Source of the DNA: an uncultured Desulfobacteraceae bacterium
GTDB lineage: Bacteria; Desulfobacterota; DSM-4660; Desulfatiglandales; HGW-15
Direction: 5' to 3'
DNA: 64,000 nt
Assembly: GCA_964520425.1 (NCBI GenBank)
Contig: CAZFMX010000005.1
Span: forward strand, 1,416 to 65,415
Shown here: one piece after another, positions 8,420-62,726 of the stretch
Layout: each line of letters begins with the position of its first letter
Numbering within the stretch: the first letter of the stretch is position 1
Program-made: the position numbers and the translations under genes
Notes under the pieces: model-generated
The model's database searches: none
Told to the model about the DNA's origin: nothing
The model's input: only the letters and a program-made list of their open reading frames with translations

Positions 8420-8530
8420 GCCCTTTTGGCCAATCTCTGCGTTACGCTTCAGAATGTAATCCTCGAAATACTTTCATGTATTCCTGTGGTTACAATCTTC
8501 GCGTTCCTTGACCTTTACCAAAAATTCTCG
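8420..8530 (-). repeat. family-B MITE-like repeat, partial copy (reverse orientation)
   Basis: Aligns with 45726-45867: ...TTTTGSCCAATCTCTGCGT...ATCCTCGAAATACT...GTATTCCTG.GGTTA.AAT.TTCGC.TTCCTTGACCTT. Confidence 0.6.
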
Positions 8531-8647
8531 TTTCTGGATGGACGCTACCTAAACAATGAATGAAAAGCAAGCTGCGAGCGTTTCAGATCAACAAATTTCA
8601 CCATCAAATTTGTTGATTGGCAATGATAATTCAGGATTTTGGGGAAT

Positions 8648-11302: not shown

Positions 11303-11377
11303 TACCCGTAAGGTTTCTCCCTTAGAGAGGAAGATCTCAGGAAGTTCCCTCCAAAAGGGGCATTAAGAGAAGAAAGA

Positions 11378-11571
11378 GGGACCTTTGAAAAATATTCAAT
11401 TCTGTTCAAGGTCAAGGAAGGCGAGAATTCTAACCCTCCCGATTTTCATCGGGACAGCCAGGAATACCTGTAGTATTTCGCGAATTAGAATTTGAGTCTG
11501 ACACCGCTTGTCCCGCCATAGCCTTTGGCGACGGCGGAAGATTGGGCAAAAGGGGTGTTTTTCAAAGGTCT
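11378..11571 (+). repeat. family-B MITE-like repeat (longest copy)
   Basis: Termini GGGACCTTTGAAAAAT ... GTTTTTCAAAGGTCTC. Core ...TTCAAGGTCAAGGAAGGCGA.AAT.CTAACCCTCCCGATTTTCATCGGGACAGCCAGGAATACC. Confidence 0.75.
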
Positions 11572-11694
11572 CAAAGACTCAATGGCTGAAAGTCTCCGCA
11601 TGTTCACGATTAGTACCTGCATGCATCGGCAATCGAGAAAAGCTGCAGTGCTGGGAGGTTTTGGACGGTCAATCATGTATGAGCTTTCGAGGTC

Positions 11695-14400
11695 ATGGTA
11701 AATCAGGGGAAGTACCAGCGGCGATCAGGAAAAGCATGGTCTAGGCGCGGACCTGGCCACACACTGGAAGAACCTTACATATCCCCAAGAGCAGACCCCC
11801 ATCTCAAGCCTCTCTTTAAAAAGATCGGTGTTCCAAAACCCACCCCCTTTGAACCAGATCCTTTTCAAGTGGAAGCCCTTGAACAGATTAAGACCTCTGA
11901 TGTCCTGGTCAGCGCACCTACGGGCTCCGGGAAGACATGGATTGCCTCTCAGGCCATCGGACAATATCTCTCCAAAGGATTGAGAGCCTGGTATGCCTCA
12001 CCGCTCAAGGCCCTGTCCAATTCCATCTATCAGGAATTGAGCAGGGAATTTGGGTCCGAGTCATGTGGAATCCTGACAGGGGATCGAAAAGAAAATGCCA
12101 GCGCGCCGATCATCGTAGGAACCACGGAAATTTTACGTAACCAGCTCTATGATGCGATGCAGACGGGGAAAACCATCCGGTCCGACCTGGTGATATTGGA
12201 TGAGGCGCACTATCTCAGTGATCCGGATCGAGGAGTGGTCTGGGAAGAGGTGCTCATCTATCTGCCCCCCCGAGTAAGGCTCTTGCTTCTCTCGGCGACC
12301 GTATCTAATGCCGAAGAGATCTCAGCATGGCTGGAGGAGAATCGCAGAACCCAGACCCGAATTGTGTGCTCTGACGATCGGCCTGTGCCATTGGAAATGC
12401 TTTTCCTTTTCCCGGATGGATTCATCTCTCCCCTTGGCGGGAAAAGAGGACTTGCCCCCAGGGTCAAAAAGTATATCTCCTCCCGAGAAGGAAAGAGAAG
12501 AGGATTAAAAAAAATCCAATTTGGGGAGATCATCCACTGTCTGAGGGCATTTGATCTCCTTCCGGCCATCTTCTTTCTCAAATCAAGAAAAGATTGCAAT
12601 CATGCCCTCTTGACCTGTCCATCCGTGGAAAGACCTTCTGAACTCAGAGAGCGGGCTGAACGGGAAGTCAAGGAGTTTATGCAGGAGTACCCTCACCTGA
12701 AGGGACATCCTCAACTCAGTCGGTTATCGGACGCCGCAGTGGGCTCCCATCATGCGGGCCAGCTTCCCTACTGGAAGATGCTCATTGAGAGGATGATGAA
12801 TAAAGGGTATTTGGAAGTCATCTTCTCCACATCCACGGTGGCGGCGGGCGTGAATTTTCCTGCAAGGACCGTGGTTTTAGTCCAGAGTGACCGTTATGAC
12901 GGGCATGAATTCACCAACCTCACGGCAACAGACCTTCACCAGATGGTCGGTCGAGCCGGACGAAGGGGAAAGGACAACATCGGATTTGCCCTCATCGTGC
13001 CCGGTCTTCACCAGGACCCTGAGCTAATATATGAACTAAGGGACTCTCCTCCAGAGCCTCTTATGAGTCAGATCCACATCAATTTCTCCATGACCCTGAA
13101 CCTGCTCCTTTCGCATACACCCATGGAGGTGAAGGATCTGCTGGACCATTCATTTGCCGCGTTCCAAGAAAAAAAGGCAGGTTCCCCAGTGCAGAGGCAA
13201 TGGGAGGAGATGCTTAGGGTTTTAAACAAAGCACTCCCTCAAGGTCTGTGCGATACGGGTGATCCCTACGAGATTCTGGAGAACATCGATAAAAGACTGG
13301 AGACAAATAGAGAAAAGAAGGTGATGAAAAGAGAGATACGGAATGAAAGGCGATTGAGAACATACACCCCGTTCCTGCGACCCGGGCGATTGTTTCTTCA
13401 TAAGAATAAAGGGATCTATGTCATCTTTCATACCTACAAGGATGAAGGAAGACTGATCTGTGCGGCTCACAATATTCACGAGACCGTTCGAGCCAGGAAA
13501 CGCAAAATCCGGTTGAGAAAAGTCCCTTTCGATAAGATCCGAGCCCTCTACGATTATCGGGTCGATTTGCCGGAGGGCTATTCTTTAGAGAGATTGCAGA
13601 CACTTTTCGATGCCATCAGCAGGGATGACCTGGAGTTGTTGCGTGTCGATTCCTCCGAAGAAGCAGTCGGAGAAGGAGATCTGGATCTCATCCAGAAAAG
13701 ACTGAGTGAACTCCCATGTGAGACATGTGAACACCTCAATGAGTGCCACACGGCAAAGAACAAGAAACTGAAACGGATCTTAAAAGAATTTCGGTCACTT
13801 GCCTATAAGATGGGGGGGGACAAAGGCGGGTTGTGGGCCAGCTTCAAAAGACACCTCAGATTTCTCAAAGAGATGGGTTTTGTGGATGAAACGGATCAAT
13901 TGACGCCTGACGGAGACTGGGCATCTAAATTGAGACTGGACCAGCCCCTTCTTATTGCCGAGGCCATCAGAAGAAAGGCTCTGAGCGGCATTTCTCCTGA
14001 GGTCATGGCAGGGTGCATGGCGCCTTTTGTCTGGGATCGGGTCCAGGAAGTGGAGCTTCTGACCCAAAGTCCCATGGACCTGAAGAATTGCGAAGATGCC
14101 TTTAGCAACGTGATCGAATCGATCCAAGAGATCAGAACGCTGAAAGCAAAGCGGGGATTTGAAAACCCTCCGATCCTCTTTTGGCCCGCGGCAGCCCTGT
14201 TTTTATGGGCCAAAGGAGTGCCGTGGGAAAGGCTTTTATCCTATATTCCTGTAGACGAAGGGGATATGGCCTCTCTGATTCTAAGGACGGCAGACCACTT
14301 GCGGCAGGCGACAAACCTAAAGAAATCCCACCCCGAACTCGTCTCAGTAGCCCACACGGCCATAGAGCATATCCTGCGTGAACCTGTCCTTATCTCCTAG
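11695..14400 (+). CDS. Ski2-like superfamily-2 DEAD/DEAH-box helicase
   Basis: SAPTGSGKT (Walker A), LDEAHY (motif II), SAT, HHAGQLP, and a long C-terminal domain. Confidence 0.85.
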   Translation: MVNQGKYQRRSGKAWSRRGPGHTLEEPYISPRADPHLKPLFKKIGVPKPTPFEPDPFQVEALEQIKTSDVLVSAPTGSGKTWIASQAIGQYLSKGLRAWYASPLKALSNSIYQELSREFGSESCGILTGDRKENASAPIIVGTTEILRNQLYDAMQTGKTIRSDLVILDEAHYLSDPDRGVVWEEVLIYLPPRVRLLLLSATVSNAEEISAWLEENRRTQTRIVCSDDRPVPLEMLFLFPDGFISPLGGKRGLAPRVKKYISSREGKRRGLKKIQFGEIIHCLRAFDLLPAIFFLKSRKDCNHALLTCPSVERPSELRERAEREVKEFMQEYPHLKGHPQLSRLSDAAVGSHHAGQLPYWKMLIERMMNKGYLEVIFSTSTVAAGVNFPARTVVLVQSDRYDGHEFTNLTATDLHQMVGRAGRRGKDNIGFALIVPGLHQDPELIYELRDSPPEPLMSQIHINFSMTLNLLLSHTPMEVKDLLDHSFAAFQEKKAGSPVQRQWEEMLRVLNKALPQGLCDTGDPYEILENIDKRLETNREKKVMKREIRNERRLRTYTPFLRPGRLFLHKNKGIYVIFHTYKDEGRLICAAHNIHETVRARKRKIRLRKVPFDKIRALYDYRVDLPEGYSLERLQTLFDAISRDDLELLRVDSSEEAVGEGDLDLIQKRLSELPCETCEHLNECHTAKNKKLKRILKEFRSLAYKMGGDKGGLWASFKRHLRFLKEMGFVDETDQLTPDGDWASKLRLDQPLLIAEAIRRKALSGISPEVMAGCMAPFVWDRVQEVELLTQSPMDLKNCEDAFSNVIESIQEIRTLKAKRGFENPPILFWPAAALFLWAKGVPWERLLSYIPVDEGDMASLILRTADHLRQATNLKKSHPELVSVAHTAIEHILREPVLIS

Positions 14401-14506
14401 TGTCGTGTCCCAAAAGAAACTTACATAAAAGAGTGCCTGAAAACAGATCCATAAAGATGTCACAGAATATGTTCATGATAATGTAAGTGATTTCTGGGAC
14501 ACGACA
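14397..14506. repeat. family-A MITE-like repeat, minimal form
   Basis: CTAG+TGTCGTGTCCCAAAAGAAACTTACAT ... ATGTAAGTGATTTCTGGGACACGACA. Fills the gap between two convergent genes. Its CTAG provides the helicase stop codon. Confidence 0.8.
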
Positions 14507-14583
14507 TGAGTCCCTCGTTTCGGAAATTCTGCAGCCAGTTGAAGTCAAGAGTATTAATCAGGGTCTTATATTCAGCTTCATTT

Positions 14584-20943: not shown

Positions 20944-21269
20944 AGGCCTGTGATTTTCGATCAAAAGAATTTTGATCAAAAAGCACAGGAAGAAAATCTA
21001 ACACCTCAAAACTATTAAACAAAGGAGTTCGTGGGGCACGTCAGGAGATACTCGACGACACTATGTGAAAGGGGTTCCTTGCCCCTTACTCACGATCGCT
21101 AGAATGAGAGGACTCCGGACGAATGATGAATAATCATGGTAACCAACCCACGTATAGCAGTTTGATTCACCGTCGAAGAAGCCCCACCTCCTTTTCTTAA
21201 TACGAAAAAGTCAATTATGGCCTAACAAAATAATCATTTTATTGTTGACAAAAGCCCGTTTCATAGCAG
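20944..21269 (+). ncRNA. candidate bridge-RNA region in the 3' non-coding arm of the IS
   Basis: 326 nt, hairpin-rich (long hairpin at 20947-20989). ACGACACTA (21055-21063) is the reverse complement of the reconstructed empty site TAGTGTCGT. No covariance-model test was possible. Confidence 0.35.
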
Positions 21270-21588
21270 TGTCGTGTCTCAGAATTAACTTGAATAATAA
21301 GTACCTGCTGCACAAACTCAAAGGGGACATGGGGGCCTCTTTTCAGTTCCACCACCATCTATCCAGAGGTCGTGGAACGGCACCATAATTTTGCATATTA
21401 TGAAGCAGCCCCACGAACAATGTACCCACAGCGACGGGCATCCCTTGTGCCTGTCCACCGAACGTTGTCCTCTTTGGGGGCGGTTAGGGGCTCAGGCGTC
21501 TTTTGGGTGTTGGAACTGAAAAGAGACCCCCATGTCCCCTTTGAATCTGTGCAGCAGGATTTATAAATTCTGAGACACGACACTAAAA
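21270..21588. repeat. family-A repeat with a ~318-bp palindromic core, interrupted at its left terminus by the IS
   Basis: TGTCGTGTCTCAGAATTAACTTGAATAATAAGTACCTGCTGCACAAACTCAAAGGGGACATGGGGGCCTCTTTTCAGTTCC ... GGAACTGAAAAGAGACCCCCATGTCCCCTTTGAATCTGTGCAGCAGGATTTATAAATTCTGAGACACGACA+CTAA. Confidence 0.8.
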
Positions 21589-22457: not shown

Positions 22458-22597
22458 TAAAGTCATTTGGTTCGTCCGGTTAATGAGTACACAATAATTT
22501 GAGGTTTCGTATCAGTTGAACAGCGAAAGAATGGTGATGAAATCTTTTCTTCGATTCTGAGTCCACGGCCAGAGGTGGTGGGCCCAATTCACAACTA

Positions 22598-22763
22598 GAG
22601 ACCTTTGAAAAATGCTCAAATTTGTTCAAGGTCAAGGAAGGCGAAAATCCTAACCCTCCCGATTTTCATCGGGACAGCCAGGAATACCTTAAAAGTATTT
22701 CGAGGATTAGAATTTGAGCCTGACGCCGAAATTGGGCAAAAGGGGGCGTTTTTCAAAGGTCTC
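22598..22763 (+). repeat. family-B MITE with 5-bp target-site duplication
   Basis: AACTA|GAGACCTTTGAAAAATG ... CGTTTTTCAAAGGTCTC|AACTA. Abuts the stop codon of the AOR gene. Confidence 0.85.
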
Positions 22764-22765
22764 AA

Positions 22766-24841: not shown

Positions 24842-25606
24842 CTAATGCATTGACAAGCCACCGTCATGGACAATGAGTTGTCCGGATATGTAGTCACTCA
24901 TGTTACTGGCCAGGAATACGGCCGTTCCCACAAGGTCTTCCGGAACAGCTGCCCTCTTTATGCATCTCTGCTCAAGTTGAAGCTCTTCAAGTAGCGGGAT
25001 GGGAACCGCCTTGTTGCGGTCGAATCTATCGCCACCTTCCGAATGGGTGAAACCAGGTGCAATGGAATTGACGTTGATTTTGTGATCCCCCAACTCTCTT
25101 GCCATGGCACGGGTAAAGGCCATGATCGCTCCTTTGGAGGCCACATAATGGGGCGCGAATGGAACACCCTCCATAATGGAAGCCGAGGAGATGTTGATGA
25201 TCTTGCCGCCCTTCTTCTTCATGTAGGGAAAGACAGACTTGCAGCAGTGAAAGGCACCCTTGACATTAACAGCCATCAATCGATCCCACTCTTCATCACT
25301 CACATCGGTAAAAGGCTTCATCACTATATCACCGAATATCGCGGCGTTGTTCACAAGGATATCGATGGTCCCGAACCGGGCAACAGCTGCCTTGGCCAGG
25401 GAATCACACTCTTCCTGCTTGGTCACGTCCGTTTTCACGAATATGGCCTCACTGCCCGCCTTTTCCACGTCCGCCACGGCCCGTTTTTCATCCAAAATAT
25501 CGGCAATGACCAATTTTGCCCCCTCCTGTGCAAAGCCGACGGCCAATGCCGCGCCGATCCCTTGGGCCGCGCCCGTAATAATGGCCACTTTTTCTTCCAG
25601 TTTCAC
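24842..25606 (-). CDS. short-chain dehydrogenase/reductase (FabG-like)
   Basis: TGAAQGIGAA, NNAA and YVASKGA motifs. Confidence 0.9.
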   Translation of the reverse strand: MKLEEKVAIITGAAQGIGAALAVGFAQEGAKLVIADILDEKRAVADVEKAGSEAIFVKTDVTKQEECDSLAKAAVARFGTIDILVNNAAIFGDIVMKPFTDVSDEEWDRLMAVNVKGAFHCCKSVFPYMKKKGGKIINISSASIMEGVPFAPHYVASKGAIMAFTRAMARELGDHKINVNSIAPGFTHSEGGDRFDRNKAVPIPLLEELQLEQRCIKRAAVPEDLVGTAVFLASNMSDYISGQLIVHDGGLSMH

Positions 25607-25736
25607 ATTTAACCTCCTCCCCGTTAATCTTTTTTGTATTCTCCTTCAATTCGACCCAGGCCAGCTCCCTTCTCGTCTGACCACACTTTATTTCCCATAG
25701 GATTTTATCGCCTCGTCTCAGCGTTGCCGCGAATAG

Positions 25737-26078
25737 CTAGTGCTCTGTATCGTATATTCACGGATCAAGTAAAAGATGAGGCATGGGCTGTTCCCTCAAG
25801 ACGATATCTCAAAAAGAAATTCCACTGAACCCTGCAGTGATTTGAGCTTTGAGGGGGAATGCCCCAGGGTGCGCCCCGGGGGGTACCCCCCAGAACCCGC
25901 GGCAGAATGTATGGCTCGCTTGGAAGAATCATCCTCTCAAACCCTCAAAGTTCAGATCACCACCACGGGTCCCTATAGATATCGTCTTGAGGGAATAGTC
26001 CTTGCCGAATTACACATTCAAACAATCGAGTGGTCCATCAAAAACCCTGAATATAAGTCTCAGGAATCATGATGCTAG
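25737..26078 (+). repeat. composite repeat: degenerate family-A termini (CTAG...CTAG) carrying D core copy 1 (25780-26006)
   Basis: The D core is a ~225-nt rod: GGCATGGGCTGTTCCCTCAAGACGATATCTC ... GATATCGTCTTGAGGGAATAGTCCTTGCC with an inner 19-bp stem. Confidence 0.75.
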
Positions 26079-26114
26079 GCACTAGTGACATTGAACGAAT
26101 AATCTGAAACCGAT

Positions 26115-26405
26115 TCATCCTCCACCCACAGGAGGAAGGATTAGGATTTCGTCACCTTCTTGGAGCGCTGTCTCCATCTTTTTTTCAAGGAATGCGATAT
26201 CACGGCCGTTCACCATCAGGCGAATATAGGGAAAAAGACTGTTCTCCGAGTCAAATAGCTCGGAAGCTAAAGGCTTGCCATAGGTCTCAACCATAGTCAT
26301 GATCACGTCCTTAACTGTGCTTCCGTCATTCACGGTGAGATCGATGTCTCCTCGCCCGAGGATCTTTTTCAAGTTTAGGATTGTGTGGACTTTTACTTGG
26401 ATCAA
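26115..26405 (-). CDS. MoaD/ThiS-family ubiquitin-like sulfur-carrier protein
   Basis: 96 aa ending ...ILILPPVGGG. Confidence 0.75.
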   Translation of the reverse strand: MIQVKVHTILNLKKILGRGDIDLTVNDGSTVKDVIMTMVETYGKPLASELFDSENSLFPYIRLMVNGRDIAFLEKKMETALQEGDEILILPPVGGG

Positions 26406-26629
26406 TCTTCAACCTCGCAAGAGTCCCTCATATAAGGATGTTCTGCTTAAGAACGGGTACGATTTCAGAGGACAACCCGTTAACCCAAGAAGATAAGAGT
26501 GATTATTAGTTTAGTAGGAGCAGAATCTTGCATGTAGCCATTTCGAGAGTCTCGACTATATAAAAATCCTTCTCGGGTGTCAAAAGGAAAGGCGTATGAG
26601 AAAAGTGACCGCAAGGAGAGACTTTACAA

Positions 26630-27250
26630 CTAATCCTTTGGGGAAACCAAGAGTCTTTGACCTGGTTGAATATCACCGATTTCATCTGGAGATATATCGT
26701 TGAGACGACACAGTTCATCCACTGATAAACCGTATGTTTTGGCAATCCTGTAGAGTGTCTCACCAGGCTTTACTTCGTGATAGCGCTCATTGTCTTGTAT
26801 CAGCCGCTTAGGCTGAACCGAACCCGAACCTCTCACACCCCCAGCAGCTGAACTCACCTGGTTTTCCAGTTGATTGACCTGTAGGGAAAGTTCATTCAGC
26901 CGTTGTGTAAGGAAAACCTGAGGTTCCTGTCCCTTGGTCACAGATGCCTGAAGTTCAGGGATCTCCTTTTCAAGGTGACTCAGCCTCCCCTCCAGCATAT
27001 TGATCTTCAGCTTCAGGGTATTCAGCTCTACGTTTGTGCTCTTTTTATCGGAGTTGACCCATGCCACAATAAGAATAACAGCCAGTATGAAAACCCCGGC
27101 ACTTGCGACAATGGTTGGCAGATGTAAAGATCTGCTACCATTTCGGCCCCTTCGGGATTCCAAGCCCTCATCTGACTCTGAAACTTCCAGCATATCTTCG
27201 GTTAGTTCCAAAGAAATCTGACCAGATTCCTTGGCTGAATTTTGGTTCAT
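26630..27250 (-). CDS. LysM-domain membrane-anchored protein with coiled coil
   Basis: One TM helix, a heptad-rich region, and C-terminal YHEVKPGETLYRIAKTYGLSVDELCRLN (LysM). Start at ATG 27250 (AAGGAG upstream). Confidence 0.8.
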   Translation of the reverse strand: MNQNSAKESGQISLELTEDMLEVSESDEGLESRRGRNGSRSLHLPTIVASAGVFILAVILIVAWVNSDKKSTNVELNTLKLKINMLEGRLSHLEKEIPELQASVTKGQEPQVFLTQRLNELSLQVNQLENQVSSAAGGVRGSGSVQPKRLIQDNERYHEVKPGETLYRIAKTYGLSVDELCRLNDISPDEIGDIQPGQRLLVSPKD

Positions 27251-27364
27251 TAGCTGCTCCTTTCCATGAACGGAATAATCCGGGGTGGCCTTACACCGGC
27301 TCGACACGGCTCCTCACTTTGCGAAAAAATGGGTCGCCCAATTCCTTAACACCCCACAGCCTTT

Positions 27365-27763
27365 TCAGGTGTCCTCTGGCGGTTTGGCGCGCCTCAGACT
27401 CCTGTAGTACTTCGCTATGACATTGATGTACTCGCTCGTCAGTTTCAAAAACTCGATCCCTACACCCCTTCCCGTAATTCGCTTGACCCGACCTTTTACT
27501 AACATGGCCTCATCCTCTGTAGGAAACTTCAATACGATGTCAACTTCATCATCAGGTTTGAATTGAGAAGAAGTGTCCGTATAAATGAAGGCCCCAGTTA
27601 CACTAAGGTCCGTAATCTCGTTTTCTCCTGAGGAGCCCCATACTTCTACCTCCAAGCGAGAGGGCGCTCTCGGTGCATCCCTTCGTTCGTCTTCTTTTGT
27701 CATGGCATATATCTTTCCCTCTTGATACGGAAAACCGACACCCTCAAACCTTTTCCATGTCAA
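27365..27763 (-). CDS. PilZ-domain protein
   Basis: RRDAPR ... ITDLSVTGAFI. Start ambiguous (27763 or 27703). Confidence 0.7.
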   Translation of the reverse strand: MTWKRFEGVGFPYQEGKIYAMTKEDERRDAPRAPSRLEVEVWGSSGENEITDLSVTGAFIYTDTSSQFKPDDEVDIVLKFPTEDEAMLVKGRVKRITGRGVGIEFLKLTSEYINVIAKYYRSLRRAKPPEDT

Positions 27764-28131
27764 AGCATCTTATAAACCTGCTTCTTCTACTATTTAACAC
27801 GCCCTTCACCCGTTTCAGCGAGACGACGAAGCCGGGTTAGGAGATTCATCATCTTGATCTTAAAAGCTTAAGGATTGTATTAAATAGGCACCGCTCTGTC
27901 AATTCTTTTACCCTTTATATAAAGTATGAATGGATTCAAACTTTATGACCTTACTACCCTTGATACCTTTTGAAGATCTCTGCAGTCCATCCTGTGCATC
28001 TGAGTAGGAATTGGAGTTCAGAAAATTCCTTGTTATGAAGGGTCAAGAGAGATAGGAGCGGAAGGATCAAAGGGATGACCAGGACGCTTCATAAAGCCCT
28101 AAGTCAAGAACGAGGTATGGAATTGGAATAC

Positions 28132-29904
28132 TCATTCCTCCCTAAATCCCCAGAACGGGTATTCCAAAATGTAATCGGCAACTCTCCCCGGGCTGTTTTC
28201 CCGGCTCGCCACTAGCCACAGGACACTTCTCTTCTCTTCCGAAGAGATTGGAGCCAAAGGATCCCAGTGAGGTGCAAGGATCATGGCATTGTCCGCACTG
28301 TATTCAATGTCCCCTGACTCTTTGAAGGAGCCCAGACTCGGTGTCTCACTATAACTCCCCCCTTCGCTCCGAGACAGCTCGGAAATTACAAGAAAGGAGA
28401 CATTGTGTTCATCCCTGATGGCCTCCATGTGACGAAGCCATTCATCGATGCCGGCCCTGCGCTCCGAAAGGTTCTTAAAGGGGAGCTTATGGAGACTGTC
28501 CACTACGACAAGCGTATGATCTTTGTGGGTTTCATTCTGCAGAAATTCGATCTGCCTCCTCATGATATCCGGGCCAAGCTTTCTGTCTGTCACCACTCGA
28601 AAATAAGGGAGCATATCTTTGAGTTCTCGGTACGCAGCATCCAGTTTCTCTGCCGACTCCCCTTTCAGATCTATCTGCCTGATCTCTTTCTCAGAAAGCT
28701 TACTCAAACGGCATAGAGTTCTTGTATAGATTTTCTGGCGACCATTCTCGAAATCATAATAAATAACAGGTATCTTCCGTCTGGCCATCTCTGTAGAGAC
28801 TTGGATAAAAAAACAGGATTTCCCCGCCTTGGGCTGTCCACCCATGATGTTAATACCGCGAAGGCCACTGAGAGCTTCATCCATCTTAATGAATCCACAG
28901 CTCAATCCAAGAAGGGCCTTCCCCTTTTCACGCTCGATTGAATCTGTAAACCGATGATGTTCCTTCTCAGGGGAGGAGAACGGGGAAAAGGCCTTTGAGG
29001 TCCTTAACATGGAAATCACGGTGGACCTGAGTCCTTCTCCCTTGTCTCTTGCCAAGTCACAGAGGGTGTAGCCTCGATTTAGCTGTGACGGCCATTTCAG
29101 AATTCTGGACTTAAAGCCCAATCTGGTGGCCAAAGATCGCGCAGCAAGCTGGGCCTCCGGAGTATGAGTCACTACAAGAAGGACATGCATGACAAAAGCC
29201 AGCCTCTCCTGGCTGACAAACTCCAGGTCAGCCACTGATGGGAGACAAATGCCAGGAAAACCCAACTCCTTTAGGGTTAGAAGATGATTCTCTCCATCAG
29301 CGATAAAGAGGGCTCCGTCTTCGCATCGTTCAATCTCTTGCACATTGAATATTCGAAACTCTCCTGAAAAAAACGTCTCATCTCCGTGCCAGAAACTATC
29401 CTCCTCCCTCTCAGGTAAGACGCATCGCGCGGCATAGCAGTTCCCATCATCTAATACATAAGGATACACCAGATACCGACCGTTGTACCCTATCTTCATT
29501 TCATCAACCGTGGCCTTTGATATGCCAAATGCCTTGAAACGGGCATATTCAGTCTCACTCATAAGAGATCTAAACTTTCTGATTTCTTGATTTAGATTCT
29601 TGGTTGGGAGGATAGTCTGCTGTACATAAGGCTCTCGATCTGGATCGTATCCTGGAACAAGCTGGGGTGCTATTCCCATCATCCTGGCAAAATAAGGAGC
29701 GAACCCTCCCTGTATGCATCTGTTCAGGCATCGAAAATAGCCCATGAAGAGACTACTCGGGTCGAGATAGGCGACCATTGTCCCAGGGGCTTTTATTGCA
29801 TCAATCGAGCAAAATGGGCATGGAGCTTTGAGCAGATTGCCCTCGATCTTTGCTCCGGGAAGGTGGTTCAGATAGAAAGACTTTATCTCCTCAGCACGAT
29901 CCAT
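28132..29904 (-). CDS. zinc-finger / Toprim-like / DnaB-like (RecA-fold) fusion protein (primase-helicase-like)
   Basis: N-terminus CPFCS...FRCLNRC. Middle LFIADGENHLLTLKELGF (Toprim-like Glu). C-terminus GFIKMDEALSGLRGINIMGGQPKAGKS (Walker A), LVVVDSLHKL (Walker B), ISELSRSEG, SGDIEYSADNAMIL (DnaB C-terminal domain motifs). Confidence 0.7.
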   Translation of the reverse strand: MDRAEEIKSFYLNHLPGAKIEGNLLKAPCPFCSIDAIKAPGTMVAYLDPSSLFMGYFRCLNRCIQGGFAPYFARMMGIAPQLVPGYDPDREPYVQQTILPTKNLNQEIRKFRSLMSETEYARFKAFGISKATVDEMKIGYNGRYLVYPYVLDDGNCYAARCVLPEREEDSFWHGDETFFSGEFRIFNVQEIERCEDGALFIADGENHLLTLKELGFPGICLPSVADLEFVSQERLAFVMHVLLVVTHTPEAQLAARSLATRLGFKSRILKWPSQLNRGYTLCDLARDKGEGLRSTVISMLRTSKAFSPFSSPEKEHHRFTDSIEREKGKALLGLSCGFIKMDEALSGLRGINIMGGQPKAGKSCFFIQVSTEMARRKIPVIYYDFENGRQKIYTRTLCRLSKLSEKEIRQIDLKGESAEKLDAAYRELKDMLPYFRVVTDRKLGPDIMRRQIEFLQNETHKDHTLVVVDSLHKLPFKNLSERRAGIDEWLRHMEAIRDEHNVSFLVISELSRSEGGSYSETPSLGSFKESGDIEYSADNAMILAPHWDPLAPISSEEKRSVLWLVASRENSPGRVADYILEYPFWGFREE

Positions 29905-29929
29905 GTGTAGATCACTCCTTTACCATCAT

Positions 29930-30017
29930 GTCGCAAAAGCCGAGGATATCGTTACAGGGCCCGCTCATCGGGGGGATCCCCGGCGTCAAGGGTGGGCTGC
30001 GACTCAGCTCAGCCGAA
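29930..30017 (-). promoter_or_regulatory. conserved leader/upstream motif E, copy 1
   Basis: Minus strand TTCGGCTGAGCTGAGTCGCAGCCCACCCTTGACGCC...CCCGATGAGCGGGC...TCCTCGGCTTTTGCGAC lies 26-113 nt upstream of ATG 29904. Homologous to 35393-35480. Confidence 0.5.
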
Positions 30018-30165
30018 ATGAAACCTCGGTAACCTGCTGCAAACCCTGAATCACACTGTACTCTCGGTCTATTTTAACATACGTCTTGAAATTAAACAAA
30101 GTCCCTCAGCAGTTCTACCCGATCACCCAGCAAGCTGACAACCATAGGCATTGGAAAAACCTGGG

Positions 30166-30194
30166 AATATCGAATTGTCATTTTATTCGATATT
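30166..30194. promoter_or_regulatory. 10-bp inverted repeat (candidate operator) upstream of nifS
   Basis: AATATCGAAT-N9-ATTCGATATT overlaps TTGTCA...TATAAG promoter-like hexamers, ~85-110 nt upstream of ATG 30277. Confidence 0.35.
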
Positions 30195-30276
30195 GTATAA
30201 GATCTCACAGCTTCATATGAAAAGCCGGTACAGTTCTCCATGATCCGGACTGTTGAACTGTTAAGGGAGAAGACCT

Positions 30277-31431
30277 ATGAACCAAGAACCAGATCACTTT
30301 ATCTATCTGGATCACAATGCCACCACACCCATAGCTCCAGAGGCAGTTGAGGCCATGATACCTATTCTGGAAAACGAATTCGGTAATCCTTCCAGTCCCT
30401 ATACTCTGGGAACAAGGGCAAGGGAAAGGCTTGAGAAATCTCGGAACCAGATAGCCCGGCTTCTGGGCTGTGCAGACCATGAGGTGATATTCACGTCAGG
30501 AGGAACAGAGTCCAATAATGCAGTCCTCAAGGGAATCATCGACTTAAGACGCCCTAAAGATTTTCATTTGATCACCTCCGCCATAGAGCATCCCGCCATT
30601 CTGAACCCTGCCCTATTTCTGGAGGAACTGGGTGTTCAGGTCACAGTCCTTTCGGTGGACCGATTTGGCCGTGTAAACCCGGATGACGTTCTCCAGGCTA
30701 TCAGGTCTAATACGTGCTTAATATCCGTCATGTTGGCCAATAATGAAACCGGGACCTTGCAGCCTGTTCAGGAAATCTCCCAAATAGCGAAAGAACATGG
30801 CATTCCCTTTCACACGGATGCAGCCCAAGCGGTGGGCAAAATCCATGTGAATGTCCATGAACTGGGGGTGAATTTTTTGAGTGTCGCGGGACATAAACTC
30901 TACGGACCTAAAGGCATAGGTGCCCTATTCATCAGGGAGGGGGGAAGCGACTTGTGCCCCTTGATCCATGGTGCAGGGCAGGAAATGGGAAGGAGGCCGG
31001 GCACAGAAAATGTCGTGCTCTCCGTAGGCCTGGGCGTGGCCTGTGAGTTGGCAAGAGAACGGCTTAACGAAGAAATGGAGCGAATGAGAGACTTGAGAGG
31101 CCAATTGGAGAAACGGCTATTTGGTAAGATAGATGGTCTTGTTCTAAATGGGCATCCCACCGAAAGGCTCCCAAACACACTCAACGTTTCCATTCCGGGT
31201 ATTGATGGAAAAAAGATCCTTGATGGATTGCCAATCGTTATGGCATCCACTGGGGCTGCATGCCATGATCGGTCTGTTGCCCTTTCCCACGTGCTATCTG
31301 CTATGGGCGTAGCACCTGAGGTGGGGATGGGAACCCTTCGACTGACCGTCGGGAGGAGCAATACCCATGAACAGATTGAAGAGACAGCCGATTTGATCAT
31401 CAACCGCGTCAAAGAATTGAAGAATAGCTAG
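30277..31431 (+). CDS. nifS: cysteine desulfurase (NifS/IscS class V aminotransferase)
   Basis: LDHNATTP, SVAGHKLYGPKGIGAL (PLP Lys) and ASTGAACH (active-site Cys). Confidence 0.9.
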   Translation: MNQEPDHFIYLDHNATTPIAPEAVEAMIPILENEFGNPSSPYTLGTRARERLEKSRNQIARLLGCADHEVIFTSGGTESNNAVLKGIIDLRRPKDFHLITSAIEHPAILNPALFLEELGVQVTVLSVDRFGRVNPDDVLQAIRSNTCLISVMLANNETGTLQPVQEISQIAKEHGIPFHTDAAQAVGKIHVNVHELGVNFLSVAGHKLYGPKGIGALFIREGGSDLCPLIHGAGQEMGRRPGTENVVLSVGLGVACELARERLNEEMERMRDLRGQLEKRLFGKIDGLVLNGHPTERLPNTLNVSIPGIDGKKILDGLPIVMASTGAACHDRSVALSHVLSAMGVAPEVGMGTLRLTVGRSNTHEQIEETADLIINRVKELKNS

Positions 31432-32022
31432 CGTCGTATCCCAGAAGTAACTTAAATCAAAAAGTGGCTCCTCAGGAGAATCCCTGGGTTCATACGTAAA
31501 GGAGAAGAATGGAAAAAGTTGAAAATCCAAGGATTTTCGCAGTCATGTTTGCCCCTAGTGTTCGTGTTCACGATCGAGAGTAGATATTAGGGTAAAGTGG
31601 CGAAATCTTTTCATCGATTCCAAAGTTCCCGGCCTAGTCACTCCGAAAAGATCCCGCCACATCTCTTCAGTTGAATACGAATTTCCCTTACTACACCCAT
31701 AGATTCTCATAAGGAGCCCAATAAGTGCCTGTTTTAGATTCAAATGGGGTATGGTCTGTTCCCTTAAGACGATATCTCACAAAAAATTCCACTGAATCCC
31801 CTGTGATCTGCCCTTTGAGGGAGTATGCCCCGGGATTCTCCCCGTGGGGTACGCCTATGGACTTTCCGCAGAATGGTTAATTCGCTTGAAAAAACAGCCC
31901 CTTAAACCCTCAAAGGGCAGATCACCACCGCTGGACGCTATAGATATCGTCTTAAGGGAATAGATCATGCCCCAACGGATCAATTTAGTTTGTGAATATA
32001 TGAATATTTGATACGACACTAG
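31428..32022 (+). repeat. composite repeat: family-A termini (CTAG...CTAG) carrying D core copy 2 (31748-31972)
   Basis: CTAG+CGTCGTATCCCAGAAGTAACTTA ... ATATTTGATACGACA+CTAG. The left CTAG supplies the nifS stop codon. Confidence 0.75.
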
Positions 32023-32062
32023 GAGAATGGTGTTGAGGTCCTTTCGATGTGGCTAAAAATTC

Positions 32063-33358
32063 TCACCCCGACTTCTTCTTTCGATCGGCCATCCTCTTTC
32101 TGATCTCCTTCTCAAACCCTCTATCTGTTGGTCGGTAAAAGGTTTGAGTCTTCATTTGCTCCGGCAGATATTCCTGTTCCACCCATCCACCCGGATAGCT
32201 ATGTGGATAGAGGTATGTTCGACCATACCCCAACCTCTTCATCAGCCTGGTAGGGGCGTTTCTGATGTGAAGGGGAACTCCTAAGGGCCCTGAGAGCTCG
32301 ATCTCCTTTTTCACGGCCTTTTCGGCCAAATAAAGGGCATTACTCTTAGGAGCGGATGCAAGATAGATCGCGGCCTCGGCCAGGGCTAGTTCGGCCTCAG
32401 GAGGACCCACCTTTTCCCAGGCCTCAAAGGCGGCGAGGGCGACTCGAAGGGCGTTGGGATCGGCCAGACCCACATCTTCGGAGGCAAAACGAATCATCCT
32501 TCTCCCGATAAAGAGGGGATCCTCCCCTGCCACAAGCATTCTATAGAGCCAGTAGACAGATGCCTGCTCGTCCCCCCCGCGCATACTCTTGTGAAGTGCA
32601 GAGATCAGGTTGTAGTGCTCTTCCCCATCTTTATCATAGGGAAGGGCCTTCTTGTTGAGAGCCTTTTCTATGCTGCCTAAATCCAGTCTGTTCTCTCCGG
32701 CCCCATCTACTAGGAGATAATGGACAGCTGCTTCCAGATTATTAAGGGCCACTCGCGCATCTCCCGACGACAGATCAATAATATGATCTAAGGCCTCCGA
32801 CGAGACCTTCACTTTCAAGTTTCCCAGCCCATTCTTTTCATCTTGAATCGCACGATGTAGAATGGTTTTAAGGTCTTCCCTCTCTAATGGATGAAGGATC
32901 ATGACTCTAGCCCTGGAGAGCAAAGGGGGTATGATTTCAAAAGAGGGATTCTGCGTGGTGGCACCTATCAGAATGATGAGCCCACTTTCTACATGGGGCA
33001 AAAAGGCATCCTGGCGAGCCTTATTGAAACGGTGAATCTCATCCACAAACAGGATAGTTGGGGTTCCATAGACCTGGCGGGTCTCCTTTGCCGTTTCTAT
33101 AACCTGCCGGAGTTCCTTGACCCCGGAGGTCACGGCAGAAAAGGCATGAAATGGATTCTGTGAATAATCTGAAATGAGTTTGGCCAGTGTGGTCTTGCCG
33201 CAGCCAGGGGGTCCCCAAAAGATAACAGAAAAGACATGACCTGACTCCAGTGCTCTTCTCAGAGCGGACCGGGGGTTAAGCAGATGATCTTGTCCCACCA
33301 GGTCCTCGATTTTCTTGGGCCTCATCCTGTCGGCAAGAGGTGCTTTAGTGGAATCCAT
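32063..33358 (-). CDS. rarA: replication-associated recombination protein A (AAA+ ATPase)
   Basis: [22 protein letters not shown], and the MgsA C-terminal domain. Confidence 0.9.
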
Positions 33359-33372
33359 TTCTTTGCTCGAAA

Positions 33373-33700
33373 CTAGAACGAGTGTCTTGTATCAAGTATT
33401 CATAACCCAAATACCAAATGCGGCATGGCCTATTCCCGAAAGGTAATATCTCGGAAAAAATTCCATTGAACTTCCTATGATCCACCCTTTGAGGGTTTAC
33501 GCTTATTGACTTATGGCAAAATGGTTAGTTCGCTTGAGAGAAAAGGGCCCTCAAACCCTCAAAGGGCAGATCACCGCCACTGAATCTTAGAGATATCGTC
33601 TTGAGGGAATAGGCCATGCCGCATTTCATATCAAACCGATCGAGAATTCCATAAAAAAGCTATAAGTATGAGTCTCAGAGACTATGTTACGAGATACTAC
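33373..33700 (+). repeat. composite repeat: decayed family-A-like flanks carrying D core copy 3 (33416-33626)
   Basis: AAATGCGGCATGGCCTATTCCC ... GGGAATAGGCCATGCCGCATTT. The right flank aligns with the right flank of copy 1. Outer boundaries are approximate. Confidence 0.6.
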
Positions 33701-45725: not shown

Positions 45726-45867
45726 GAGACCTTTGAAAAACACATTCTTTTGCCCAATCTCTGCGTCAGACTCCATTTTTGATCCTCGAAATACTAAAGG
45801 TATTCCTGCGGTTAAAATTCTCGTCTTTCTTGACCTTGAATAAAATAGAGCATTTTTCAAAGGCCTC
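45726..45867 (-). repeat. family-B MITE with 5-bp target-site duplication (reverse orientation)
   Basis: ATCCC|GAGACCTTTGAAAAACAC ... GCATTTTTCAAAGGCCTC|ATCCC. Confidence 0.85.
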
Positions 45868-53011: not shown

Positions 53012-53246
53012 CTAATGTCGTGTCTCAGAATTATCTTGAATATTGAGTACCCACTGCACAGATTCAAAGGGGACATGGAACTGGTTAAAATGATGGAAAA
53101 TATTTCTGGGACACGACGCTAGGAGAATGGTGATGAGGTCTTTTCATCACCATTCCCTCGATGTGAAACTGAAAAGAGATCCCCATGTCCCCAACGTGTC
53201 ATAGAACCAGCTAAAATGATGAAAGCTATTTCTGAGACATGACACG
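53012..53246. repeat. family-A repeat cluster (one left end, two right ends, plus hairpin module)
   Basis: CTAA+TGTCGTGTCTCAGAATTATCTTGAATATTGAGTACC ... ATATTTCTGGGACACGACG+CTAG (53122). Then GAATGGTGATGA..TCATCACCATTC hairpin. Then ...CTATTTCTGAGACATGACAC (53246). Confidence 0.75.
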
Positions 53247-59708: not shown

Positions 59709-60689
59709 ATGAAAACATGTCCTTTCTGCCTGGAGAAAATTCAGAACGAAGCAATCAAATGCAAACACTGTGGAGAGTTTTTCGAGCAAAAGCCTGTTTT
59801 TGAAAAAAACTCTGTCAGCTATTCACCGAAAGTTGAACCAATCCAATCTGAGGATATTGAATTTATAGATTCTGAAAATGAACTAGAGAACAAAAGACTG
59901 CGACATGGCGCAAGAACAGAAGAACAAGACACAGTTGAATGTAATAAGTGCGGAGAATATTTTGATGACAATGTACAGTTCTGCCCGAATTGTGGTGCTT
60001 ACGTCAGTAAAAAAAGAAAAAAGAAGTTCTTGTTCGTCATTAATAGCATTTCGTTTTTGATACTTTTCTTAGTGTTAGCAATTTCTAAATATGCTGGAGA
60101 GCTGACCAGAGAAAAACTCGTTCCATCCATTGATTCTGAAAAAGTCGTAGTAGACAAGGATCAGAACAGAAAAGGCCCCATTGCCATTGACCCTGATAGT
60201 ATCGTTCTAATTGAGGATCATAATGAAAAAAGTCCAGTTGTCATTGACCCTGATAAAAGTGTCTCCCAGTGGAGTTATGACTCTAGAAAGTCAAAGGATC
60301 AACTTGGAAGCACCGTCTATGATACTGTAATTACATGGGACGAGCACGAGAATGGGTGTGAATGGCGTTGTAAGAACTTTGGAGGAGCAGATACGGAATT
60401 CAATTATGATGCGTTCAATGATTGGTTAGAATGCTGGCTAAGAACTGTACCCGACGCCCATGAGTGGGACTTCGATAGGGTCTTTGGATGGCAACATGAA
60501 GTTATGCTTCTCTATAATTACAAGCTAAATGGAGTAAGTAAATACAACAACTTAGAACACGCATCACCTAGTTGGATGTATGCCCATACCTATTTAAGTT
60601 ATCTGATGGAGACAGGTTGGAAAAGCGTTTCACTAAGTGAAATACCAGTATGTATCCGTGATTATGTAAAGAGAGAACGTGGCTATTAA
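59709..60689 (+). CDS. double zinc-ribbon, single-pass membrane protein of unknown function
   Basis: CPFCLEKIQNEAIKCKHCG and CNKCGEYFDDNVQFCPNCG, then KKRKKK + TM helix FLFVINSISFLILFLVLAI, then a Trp/Cys-rich C-terminal domain. RBS GGAGG. Confidence 0.6.
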   Translation: MKTCPFCLEKIQNEAIKCKHCGEFFEQKPVFEKNSVSYSPKVEPIQSEDIEFIDSENELENKRLRHGARTEEQDTVECNKCGEYFDDNVQFCPNCGAYVSKKRKKKFLFVINSISFLILFLVLAISKYAGELTREKLVPSIDSEKVVVDKDQNRKGPIAIDPDSIVLIEDHNEKSPVVIDPDKSVSQWSYDSRKSKDQLGSTVYDTVITWDEHENGCEWRCKNFGGADTEFNYDAFNDWLECWLRTVPDAHEWDFDRVFGWQHEVMLLYNYKLNGVSKYNNLEHASPSWMYAHTYLSYLMETGWKSVSLSEIPVCIRDYVKRERGY

Positions 60690-60800
60690 TGAGCAAACTA
60701 GAGAGGGATACAAGAAACTGCCAGGCTATGAGCATAATTCAAATATGAGCGGTAGCACATATGAAGAATCAGATGAATAAGTGTAAAGGAGAAAATATAC

Positions 60801-61313
60801 TTGGGTGTGCTGAAAATAGATCTTAGTTCTAGTCAAAGAATGCGATGGCCTAATAAGTGTCCATACTGTGGGGAAAAAGCTGATACGGAAGCAAGAACAA
60901 GTCTCACAGTCTTTGCAGGAGAACTTAGATATTTTGTCGTAGCTTTTGGATGGACAGAGCGTAAATACACGATTTCGTATCCAGTCTGCCGGAAACACAA
61001 TAAATTTGTCTATACTCGCATGCCTTCATGGGGATTTTGGGGAAATCTCTTTGTTTTCCTAATGATCACTCTCGCCTTACCTGCTCTCGTAGTAGCTTTG
61101 CAGTATATCACGAGTGATGTATTGAAGTATCTTGCAGCAGCGCTAGCAGTTGCGATTTATGTCTTTTCATTTTTTTGCTTGTTTATCTCTCCGTTCATAT
61201 TAAAGCCTGTCAGAATCTCTCCTAGTGGAAAAGGATCAGCTAAGCTGTATATCCGTAATGAAGGCTGCTTTCGTGAATACCGAATTCTAAACCAAAACAT
61301 CCTTCTCCCGTAA
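60801..61313 (+). CDS. zinc-finger-like N-terminus plus 2-TM membrane protein, unknown function
   Basis: TTG start with AAAGGAG 8 nt upstream. CPYCG...CRKH. Two hydrophobic helices. Confidence 0.5.
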   Translation: MGVLKIDLSSSQRMRWPNKCPYCGEKADTEARTSLTVFAGELRYFVVAFGWTERKYTISYPVCRKHNKFVYTRMPSWGFWGNLFVFLMITLALPALVVALQYITSDVLKYLAAALAVAIYVFSFFCLFISPFILKPVRISPSGKGSAKLYIRNEGCFREYRILNQNILLP

Positions 61314-61381
61314 TATTTGAAAAAGACAGATACACCATAGCGACTGCAAAGAGAGAGCGGCTCAACCATTCAAGGTTTTAT

Positions 61382-62140
61382 ATGGCAATAATAAGAATCA
61401 AAAACATGGCAAATATTGATGTTGGAGATGAGAATGAATACGAGAATAAACTTGCCTCACATTGTCAGCTTGGCAACGGCTTCGTTTGGTTGGTTTTCTA
61501 TGATGATTCTTTACCTCCTAATCTGCAGGGCAGATGTGTTCCGAAGGATCTGTTATATCTTTGCCCGGAGCCATATAACAGCAGTATAATTAATAGTAAT
61601 GATTGGCAGGAGCATCGGAAATGGGATTGCTACATTGCTATTTCCGAAGAATGGTGCGAGAAGAAAGACAAATACCCAGCCTACTTTACATACTTAATTG
61701 GTCATGAACTAGGTCATGCAAAAATCTGGCTATCTGATTCAGGTTTGTTTGAATTCTGTTGGCTAATACACTTATATCTTGTGGAGAGAAGCAAACAGGG
61801 AGAAAGAATCCTGCTGCATGAGTTTCCGGAGGAGTCTCATTGTGATCACTTTGGGGTCTATTTGTGTGAGAAACTAAGTCTTCGGTCTCAACTGAATAGA
61901 GAAATCATAGAGATGATTTCGGAGGACTCCTGTAAAGATCGTGAGAGGCTTCAGTGGCTACTCACCATAAGTGGATCTGATGATTTAGATAAATTGAGGG
62001 CGGATTTAGTAAATTCTTTTCGACCTCAAAGGCCGGATCTGATTGATTATTGGGAGAAGAGAAAACAAAACAATAGAATTACATGCCTTACTCAAAAATA
62101 TGAGCGTGCTCATTTCGAAGCACTGTTTGATTTCAGATGA
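61382..62140 (+). CDS. putative zinc metallopeptidase-like protein (HExxH)
   Basis: YLIGHELGHAKIW with a downstream acidic/His cluster (HEFPEESHCDH). Family not recognised. Confidence 0.5.
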   Translation: MAIIRIKNMANIDVGDENEYENKLASHCQLGNGFVWLVFYDDSLPPNLQGRCVPKDLLYLCPEPYNSSIINSNDWQEHRKWDCYIAISEEWCEKKDKYPAYFTYLIGHELGHAKIWLSDSGLFEFCWLIHLYLVERSKQGERILLHEFPEESHCDHFGVYLCEKLSLRSQLNREIIEMISEDSCKDRERLQWLLTISGSDDLDKLRADLVNSFRPQRPDLIDYWEKRKQNNRITCLTQKYERAHFEALFDFR

Positions 62141-62225
62141 ATCATACTCACATAATCACTTCCAATTACCCATCGTGGTCAATCCCTCTCCTTATCCCTA
62201 TATTTTTAATCAGGCCCCTATAGTT

Positions 62226-62277
62226 AAGTGAAGATAAAGTAGTCAAGTGAAGATAAAATAACCTTACAGAAGGTTAT
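62226..62277 (+). repeat. two 13-bp direct repeats (19-bp period) followed by an 8-bp-stem hairpin
   Basis: AAGTGAAGATAAA (62226-62238) and AAGTGAAGATAAA (62245-62257), then ATAACCTT-ACAG-AAGGTTAT (62258-62277). Confidence 0.6.
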
Positions 62278-62460
62278 AGCCCCCTTTCCTTCCATTCAAA
62301 CAACACCTACAAATCAATACCGAACTTCGCCTGTTCGACCCTGGGGACATGCTGCGGCCATCTTACAGCTAATCTGTGTTGCGAAGCTCATCATTTTCAT
62401 TGTCGATCGTTCTTGCTGATTGAGGCATAAAAAATTCCGATCAGAAAGGAGGTGAAAAAC

Positions 62461-62643
62461 ATGTCTAATTTCTTTGATGATGACTGCGATTTTGGATGGC
62501 AAGAAATGGGGATGCTTGGCGCTCTCGCAGAAGAGATGTCTGAAGAAGAAAAAGAGCGTCTGAGGCTAGAACAAGAGATAGAGAAAGAAATGGATAGATC
62601 CTGCTGTAATGAAGACTTTTCAGAAGAAGATTTTCGTCCATAA
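62461..62643 (+). CDS. small highly acidic protein
   Basis: 60 aa from ATG 62461 (AAAGGAGGTG upstream). 21 of 60 residues are D/E by my count. Confidence 0.5.
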   Translation: MSNFFDDDCDFGWQEMGMLGALAEEMSEEEKERLRLEQEIEKEMDRSCCNEDFSEEDFRP

Positions 62644-62726
62644 CTAAATTTCAAGAGTAGAGACAGAGGCAGCCGTATGGTCTTTATGATCATGCGGCTT
62701 TTCTTGTTTCTGAAAGGAGTAGAACG

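Follow-up and report, generated by a model that had tools for sequence, protein, structure and literature searches.

The DNA analysed here, called the window, is a stretch of 64,000 nucleotides (nt) from contig CAZFMX010000005.1 (assembly GCA_964520425.1) of an uncultured Desulfobacteraceae bacterium, and it carries three copies of a rod-like fold-back sequence designated the D core. On the evidence of its sequence, the D core makes up the fold-back centre of a non-autonomous transposon, a MITE (miniature inverted-repeat transposable element) of the IS630 type that is ~300-350 bp long. The element, referred to below as the D-MITE, has spread through a lineage of uncultured Desulfobacteraceae-like bacteria, in which it occupies dozens of sites, and it represents a new MITE family with a maintained hairpin that is probably under selection in a single-stranded form. 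The reading preferred here is that the hairpin is kept by a constraint on the plus strand and that the molecule that folds is a plus-strand transcript; the probability of this reading as a whole is estimated at about 50%.

Copies of the element were collected with the 18-mer GATATCGTCTTRAGGGAA, which was used to scan species-representative genomes once and metagenome contigs once. Many contigs of sediment-type metagenomes contained matches, Ga0315553, Ga0307419 and Ga0209536 among them, as did two metagenome-assembled genomes, 'Deltaproteobacteria bacterium Zod_Metabat.1351' (JAFGFY01, from Zodletone spring) and 'uncultured Desulfobacteraceae bacterium' (CAZCCX01). Together they supplied 58 full-length cores, of which 47 are distinct, at no fewer than 39 independent insertion sites (retrieved loci are given L numbers). 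All insertion sites are intergenic and lie beside ordinary chromosomal genes, and no relatives of the element were found in viral contigs or PLSDB plasmids. A literature search located nothing on this MITE family.

When the copies were aligned together with their flanks, homology was found to begin ~40 nt before the core and to stop ~95 nt after it, beyond the extent given to the repeat in a preliminary description of the window. The limits of the element are terminal inverted repeats of 15-18 bp, CTAGTGCCTYGTATCATA ... TATGATACGAGGCACTAG, and similarity to the surroundings ceases exactly there. The commonest junction is CTAG (17 left ends and 19 right ends), and the remaining junctions are one mutation away from it. 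The element is thus small (300-350 bp), non-coding (no conserved open reading frame, ORF), multi-copy (at least 39 loci) and variably present, as is usual for MITEs. One copy, in L028, lies between PilZ-domain and DnaB-like genes, and the window has no copy at that place.

A complete insertion sequence (IS) of 1.18 kb, with terminal repeats of ~20 bp (CTAGTGTCTCGTAAC), is located at positions 285-1465 of L079, where it interrupts the right arm of a D-MITE at a site that reads TTAG/CTAG. Its 368-amino-acid transposase matches NCBIfam NF033545 (IS630 family) with 260 bits at a cut-off of 100 and contains Pfam DDE_3 and helix-turn-helix domains, and its ends, CTAGTGTCTCGTAACATT / CTAGTGTCTCGTAACTTAAG, are identical to the MITE ends, CTAGTGCCTCGTATCATA, at ~15 of 18 positions. 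Judged by this resemblance, the L079 IS, which comes from the same population, is likely to be the autonomous partner of the MITE and is its candidate parent; its transposase would move the MITE in trans by cut-and-paste at TA. Elements of the IS630/Tc1-mariner group are cut and pasted as double-stranded DNA into TA, which is duplicated (PMC2170065). A sister family, D', was recognized at two loci, L028/L055 (L028 1854-2044 on the minus strand, equivalent to L055 4285-4475) and L063/L091. The D' copy of L063 (400-548 and 860-908) is interrupted by a D-MITE exactly at an internal CTAG, and the uninterrupted D' copy has a single CTAG there. The single CTAG in one copy and the flanking CTAG pair in the other would fit the TA-insertion model, from which a 4-bp CTAG duplication (IS5-like) is indistinguishable by sequence. 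Three candidate orthologous loci were checked for a clean empty site, and all of them held other sequence or another MITE.

Several other identities were considered for the core. It was rejected as a nested MITE in its own right, as the closing stem has neither TA nor CTAG beside it and a core that lacks the outer arms is found only where truncation has occurred. Integron attC sites and retrons were also considered and were dropped on the grounds of length, multi-copy terminal-repeat context, housekeeping neighbours and the lack of a reverse transcriptase nearby. It is also very improbable, and already largely refuted, that the copies form a stand-alone family of structured non-coding RNA genes (for example a 6S-like rod) or of small protein genes that is repeated by chance. 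The rod shape, the large and asymmetric internal loop and some conserved loop motifs would suit an RNA gene, and an ORF runs through the 3' half in a few copies, yet the same terminal-repeat element surrounds every copy. A comparison with Rfam, to which the preliminary description had pointed, matched no family: no hit reached the gathering score in the whole window, and a search of copy 1 at E<=10 yielded two chance-level hits. A coding function was rejected in addition, since the plus-strand ORF that runs from the conserved ATGGCAGAATG through the nearly invariant 3' arm is closed by an in-frame stop no later than codon 14 in 36 of the 47 copies.

A profile built from the three window copies and searched with nhmmer placed the cores at 25776-26010, 31744-31975 and 33418-33624, all on the plus strand. 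These positions agree closely with those first described (25780-26006, 31748-31972 and 33416-33626), and the arms of the closing stem and of the inner 19-bp stem were located in all three copies as described. Across the window, a 22-nt arm motif occurs five times against 0.00 times expected from shuffles. Every window copy is predicted to fold into a rod with a closing stem of ~34 bp and an inner stem of 19-24 bp; in the architecture of the element the internal loop is large and asymmetric, with 27 and 16 nt on its two sides. The z scores against shuffles range from -7.6 to -11.3 and are low on both strands because any inverted repeat must give such values.

MITE copy 1, of 349 bp, occupies 25737-26085 on the plus strand and has CTAG at both junctions (left end CTAGTGCTCTGTATCG, right end GATGCTAGGCACTAG; boundaries from the 47-copy flank alignment). 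Its terminal inverted repeats, including CTAG, are at 25737-25754 and 26068-26085. The core of this copy is the long form of 235 nt, whose apex carries a GC-rich insert of 24 nt (fold -110.9 kcal/mol, z -7.6); the 5' and 3' arms lie at 25780-25809 and 25977-26006 for the closing stem, and at 25837-25855 (GTGATTTGAGCTTTGAGGG) and 25942-25960 (CCCTCAAAGTTCAGATCAC) for the inner stem. MITE copy 2 was assigned to 31722-32022 on the plus strand, with the right end TTTGATACGACACTAG at 32007-32022 and an uncertain left end, the left arm being shortened or disrupted; in its orthologue in L018 the left arm is intact, starting from a CTAG equivalent to window position 31429. The core of copy 2 is likewise of the long form (231 nt; fold -116.1 kcal/mol, z -11.3), with closing-stem arms at 31745-31777 and 31942-31974 and inner-stem arms at 31803-31821 and 31907-31925. 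At or inside the left arm of this copy are ~290 nt (window 31429-31721, starting CTAGCGTCGTATCCCAGAAGTAAC) that the L018 orthologue lacks, probably another element of the same superfamily that was inserted or fused at copy 2. MITE copy 3 spans 322 bp at 33379-33700, again on the plus strand, with junctions mutated to CGAG and CTAC, and its core is the commonest short form (207 nt; fold -93.9 kcal/mol, z -9.0). The extended arms of its closing stem are at 33411-33452 and 33590-33631; the inner stem has its 5' arm, ATGATCCACCCTTTGAGGG, at 33477-33495, with three mismatches that are of the A-C type on the plus strand, and its 3' arm at 33556-33574.

Copy 3 had been described as decaying by uncompensated mismatches and an apical deletion. 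It is indeed the most damaged of the window copies and holds four of the 18 A-C mismatches tallied over 39 loci; its short apex, by contrast, is not a private deletion, since cores of 207-209 nt make up 34 of the 47 distinct copies, copy 3 included. Its arm variant CCCGAAAG is a subfamily trait that is present in 15 of the 47 copies. Core lengths fall into classes of ~208, 232 and 256 nt, separated by 24-nt steps (alignment A2, columns 86-126 and 177-200; examples are window 25856-25893 and L093, L113, L065, L112 and L079). One length type is due to a GC-rich unit of ~12 nt, CCCGGGGTACGC, repeated at the apex, and the other to an unrelated 24-nt insert, CGGCCTGTCCTGAGCTTGTCGAAG. Short derivatives without the inner stem occur in L106, L076 and L018.

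The two predicted stems are maintained by matching changes on both arms. RNAalifold predicted 48-58 pairs in the alignment of copies, and in a 53-pair structure (34 + 19 pairs) 95.8% of the cells are canonical on the plus strand, a proportion that would be 89.4% if the structure were read on the minus strand and that compares with 33-45% in controls with slid partners. Within the family, ten pairs (47 cells) have changed on both sides; none of 500 shuffles reached these values, with a null that consists of shuffles and slid controls, is not tree-based, and leaves room for the mutational co-evolution of which palindromic DNA is capable. Hot spots of covariation are columns 4/280 (A-U in 34, G-C in 5 and C-G in 5) and 70-71/222-223, and the apical ~55 nt of the aligned copies showed no supported structure. 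Between window copies 1 and 2, the closing stem differs by a compensated change (CTCAAGACG/CGTCTTGAG vs CTTAAGACG/CGTCTTAAG), and the inner stem has CC/GG in copy 2 and AG/TT (plus T for C) in copy 1, which amounts to one C-G to A-T double change and two G-U pairs that exist on the plus strand only. All of these substitutions had been reported correctly, except that those of the inner stem were listed from copy 2 to copy 1, opposite to the direction used for the closing stem.

Comparison with the D' family extends this evidence. D and D' have the same architecture and differ by six compensated pairs in the closing stem, and visual inspection added about five more compensated pairs in the inner stem and a deletion of 1 bp on both arms. 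Approximately 30% of the stem positions have changed with compensation between the two families, and some loop motifs are unchanged, with the unpaired CTCAAAAAGAAATTCCAC and GGGTTTACGCC..GAAC constant in D and also in D'. The compensated changes within the family and relative to D' indicate that the stems have stayed paired for a long time. Over the 47 copies there is almost no variation in the 3' closing arm, TATAGATATCGTCTTGAGGGAATAG, and the 5' arm is variable (A2 columns 245-270; window 25972-25998, 31937-31963 and 33586-33612). The earlier suggestion that the structure may be more than passive MITE cargo therefore stands as far as pairing is upheld by two-sided changes; in its constant company of outer arms, the core is MITE cargo all the same.

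The mismatches that do occur are unevenly distributed between the strands. Read on the plus strand, the paired cells comprise 2201 Watson-Crick, 183 G-U, 24 A-C and 81 other combinations, and on the minus strand the G-U and A-C counts are swapped. Parsimony on a neighbour-joining tree gave 66 changes from Watson-Crick to G-U and 21 from Watson-Crick to A-C; the same transition classes are balanced in unpaired columns (137 vs 121; Fisher p=0.0002 against the paired counts). The G-U variants are also more widely spread, with 7 singletons and 19 shared variants as against 11 and 5 for A-C (p=0.011), and they are common to more copies (39 independent loci, Mann-Whitney p=0.001). Most of the other mismatches are singletons, which points to purifying selection on plus-strand pairing and not to a gain from disrupting the minus strand. 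The exception, tandem G·A/A·G, is harmless when read on the plus strand and corresponds to tandem C·U on the minus strand. The same bias is seen in D', which has seven G-U and no A-C mismatches and a plus strand that is more stable by ~10-15 kcal/mol. A jackknife over clades was uninformative, 31 of the 39 loci being in one clade. A mutational strand bias was rejected as the source of the G-U excess, since unpaired columns have C>T 70 vs G>A 69 and A>G 67 vs T>C 52, and the known transcription and replication biases would be expected to run the opposite way, given the orientation of the element.

Taken with the covariation, this mismatch spectrum suggests that the constraint would act on the plus strand while it is single-stranded. 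G·U and tandem G·A, which would be benign on that strand, could then spread among copies, and A·C and other mismatches would stay private. Purifying selection would act mainly on the lineages that spread or persist and not on each inserted copy, and individual copies decay once inserted. As a guess at the folded molecule, a plus-strand transcript would form a long imperfect RNA rod that serves the persistence or spread of the element. An essential host RNA is less likely than such a transcript of the element.

A number of results, set out in this and the following three paragraphs, weigh against this reading. Among orthologous loci, L015 differs from L051 by three changes clustered in 8 nt of the 5' arm, through which that arm becomes exactly complementary to the 3' arm, and a T-A pair has been exchanged for C-G in situ between L057 and L093, during a period in which only two non-stem differences accumulated. 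Both cases suggest palindrome-templated correction, a mutational route to apparent compensation. They lend substance to the possible, though less probable, alternative that the palindrome is the passive filling of a selfish MITE and has no single-strand function; the copies would then be young relatives whose arms are matched by intramolecular template switching or by gene conversion from copy to copy, and the G-U excess would reflect a few old transitions that hitch-hiked within successful subfamilies. In keeping with this alternative, the number of distinct variant types (26 G-U, 16 A-C) does not differ from the unpaired control, which indicates that G-U- and A-C-forming changes arise at similar rates; the strand signal rests on the spread of variants and could be inflated by hitch-hiking in a few successful subfamilies. 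The energetic asymmetry is marginal, with a mean difference of 1.8 kcal/mol between plus and minus folds; the more stable fold is that of the plus strand in 27 copies and that of the minus strand in 15 (p=0.055, RNA parameters), and under DNA energy parameters the strands did not differ. A similar excess, G-T 37 vs A-C 10, is present in the outer terminal repeats, where double-stranded DNA is bound by protein, but it comes from too few events to be informative. Core polarity relative to the outer arms is constant in 46 of the 47 copies, which speaks for the strand-specific reading; in the remaining one (L094 3965-4172) the core is inverted between its arms, as would be expected from recombination between the closing-stem arms, which are inverted repeats, and this copy would suit a passive palindrome. 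Template switching, however, should erase all types of mismatch alike, and yet G-U and tandem G-A are abundant and A-C and the others are singletons. The bias moreover recurs independently in D', and loop motifs kept while the stems changed with compensation are the signature of a functional fold.

The fate of orthologous copies was followed in L018, which is ~90% identical to window 25575-33372 and represents a sister lineage. The orthologue of copy 1 is cut off there after ~70 nt of core, that of copy 2 is without the inner stem, and the parts that are retained have diverged about as much as their flanks (87-94% vs 88-92% identity), so that no conservation in excess of the flanks is seen at orthologous positions. 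Decay by deletion of this kind is what a passive palindrome would undergo. At the site of copy 2, L028 and L055 have a D' element, and L055 has a different MITE at the site of copy 3. The preliminary conclusion that strand-specific wobble reflects selection at the level of RNA or single-stranded DNA accordingly holds for the wobble bias and the covariation, and it is weakened by folding energies that scarcely differ and by the decay of orthologous copies.

The genomic context also bears on the strand that would be transcribed. Genes that flank the copies encode aldehyde:ferredoxin oxidoreductase, a short-chain dehydrogenase, a ThiS-like protein, LysM-domain and PilZ-domain proteins, a DnaB-like helicase, a class-V aminotransferase, MgsA/RarA, a sensor kinase and DnaE. 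Where the two neighbours are co-directional, the plus strand of the core is antisense to both genes at 16 of 17 loci (by crude ORF calls), and the count is 12:0 when both neighbours are supported by Pfam or have at least 200 amino acids; seven further elements lie between convergent genes and six between divergent genes. With this placement, read-through transcripts would carry the minus version of the element. Antisense bias together with a fold preserved on the plus strand is a combination that current models do not explain. The minus version could itself be a cis-acting RNA, co-transcribed as a terminator or 3'-end stabilizer, and its being the mRNA sense at 26 of 39 elements downstream of a gene and at 16 of 17 between co-directional genes would suit that role, as would hairpin and T-run motifs (CACTGCGGGATTCAGTGG+AATTTCTTTTT and GCCCTTTGAGGGTTTAAGGGGC+TGTTTTTTCA) and a closing stem followed by CATTTCTTACTT. 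We regard this as improbable, because the common variants would be A·C and tandem C·U on that strand, both of which are disruptive, the terminator-like motifs are weak (5-6 bp) and differ between copies, and orthologous copies have been lost without replacement. No intrinsic terminator was found on the plus strand of the elements, and weak, inconsistent sites were present only on their minus strand. A search of the element copies for a sigma-70-like promoter found none that is conserved, which, like the lack of an Rfam match, does not favour a plus-strand transcript. It is conceivable, though improbable, that the rod is a functional mobile non-coding RNA module, a plus-strand transcript with covarying stems and conserved loop motifs that rides on IS630-type MITEs (whose ends also enclose other conserved cargo modules in this genome) and acts in trans, as an antisense RNA or as a decoy (for transposase, RNase III or neighbouring genes); if true, this would explain a fold kept on the strand antisense to host genes.

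The folded molecule might also be the plus strand as DNA, in the form of a single-stranded hairpin or a cruciform at the replication fork or during repair, with an effect on excision, insertion or stability. G·T is the most tolerated mismatch in DNA hairpins too, and the lack of a conserved promoter in the element copies is in favour of this explanation. The apical repeat varies by 24-nt steps even between orthologous copies, as is typical of slippage in structured DNA, and the strong orientation bias could reflect a fixed relation to the direction of the fork or of transcription. The explanation is nonetheless unlikely. The two strands are equal under DNA energy parameters, and if genes and fork move in the same direction, the plus strand would serve as template for the leading strand and be the less exposed one; a modest gene-strand bias, in addition, could not yield 12:0. 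Transposition of IS630/Tc1-mariner elements proceeds by double-strand cuts, with no hairpin or single-strand intermediates, and an internal hairpin is not needed by double-stranded DNA that moves in this way (PMC2170065), a point that also tells against the preferred reading of a hairpin kept through a plus-strand transcript.

The window contains further elements with related ends. Other MITE families at 14397-14507, 21267-21584, 53012-53123 and 53124-53246 have the same kind of ends (CTAG + TGTCGTGTC...) and different interiors, an organization that fits the word cargo used in the preliminary description. The family of 318 bp at 21267-21584 is also rod-like, with minimum free energies of -169 and -178 kcal/mol on the two strands; seven full copies were present in the fetched loci, and the central ~200 nt are better conserved than the arms. 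Another family of repeats, bounded by the terminal inverted repeats AGAGACCTTTGAAAAA ... TTTTTCAAAGGTCTC beside CTAG-like sites, was observed at 11377-11574, 22597-22765, 45726-45867 (minus strand) and 8488-8547. Sister lineages have different MITE families at the same intergenic CTAG site in two cases (L055 6200-6530 vs window 33379-33700, and L054 2280-2840 vs window 22571-22765), which could be due to independent insertion at a hot spot or to exchange of interiors between elements that share ends. The region 60001-64000 of the window has a GC content of 0.40, compared with ~0.47 elsewhere, and a positive GC skew.

The D-MITE resembles the known bacterial MITEs of the IS630/Tc1-mariner group in its short terminal inverted repeats that match a co-resident IS630-family IS, its TA-containing (CTAG) junctions, its lack of coding capacity and its dozens of intergenic copies, the presence of which varies between related genomes. 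It differs from them in that its interior is not a collapsed parent IS, with only the first ~16-18 nt shared, and in that it carries a palindromic cargo of 207-256 nt with covariation of its own, while other families share the ends and differ in cargo. A precedent is the mobile, MITE-like repeat bcr1 from the Bacillus cereus group, in which compensatory changes maintain a predicted RNA fold (Okstad 2004; Klevan 2007; reviewed in PMC3184786). Like the D-MITE, bcr1 has repeatedly lost stability among its copies and has a distribution that is not conserved between close strains; unlike it, bcr1 is ~155 bp long, forms a cruciform-like pair of stem-loops, has 5-bp direct repeats and is transcribed (PMC3184786). 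The D-MITE has a single rod of ~210-256 nt within a CTAG-targeting element.

Correia/NEMIS elements of Neisseria and ERIC/IRU elements of enterobacteria are likewise intergenic terminal-repeat elements that form long hairpins when transcribed, and in these the orientation of the element matters. They are reported to affect neighbouring mRNAs via RNase III or RNase E (PMC2229807, in part). Those elements act in the co-transcribed sense, in contrast to the D-MITE, whose better-paired strand is antisense to its neighbours; they have no sequence similarity to it, and size and two-stem architecture differ. REPINs, which are REP doublets moved by RAYT transposases, are mobile hairpins with co-evolving arms, on which selection is thought to act in the form of a single-stranded fold. 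They are ~100 nt long, lack DDE-type terminal inverted repeats and CTAG junctions and are tied to a Y1/HUH enzyme, unlike the D-MITE, whose associated enzyme is a DDE transposase of the IS630 family that acts on double-stranded DNA.

Bacterial MITEs with hairpins that are kept by compensatory change are an already known kind of element, as represented by bcr1, Correia and ERIC. What is new here is an undescribed family in uncultured Desulfobacteraceae-like sediment bacteria, with a candidate parent transposase and an organization in which the same ends enclose different cargo. If no plus-strand transcript exists, the family would serve as a caution that palindromic DNA may show covariation, and even wobble bias, without an RNA function. 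If such a transcript does exist, the D-MITE would be a tractable case in which DNA transposition spreads a structured RNA.

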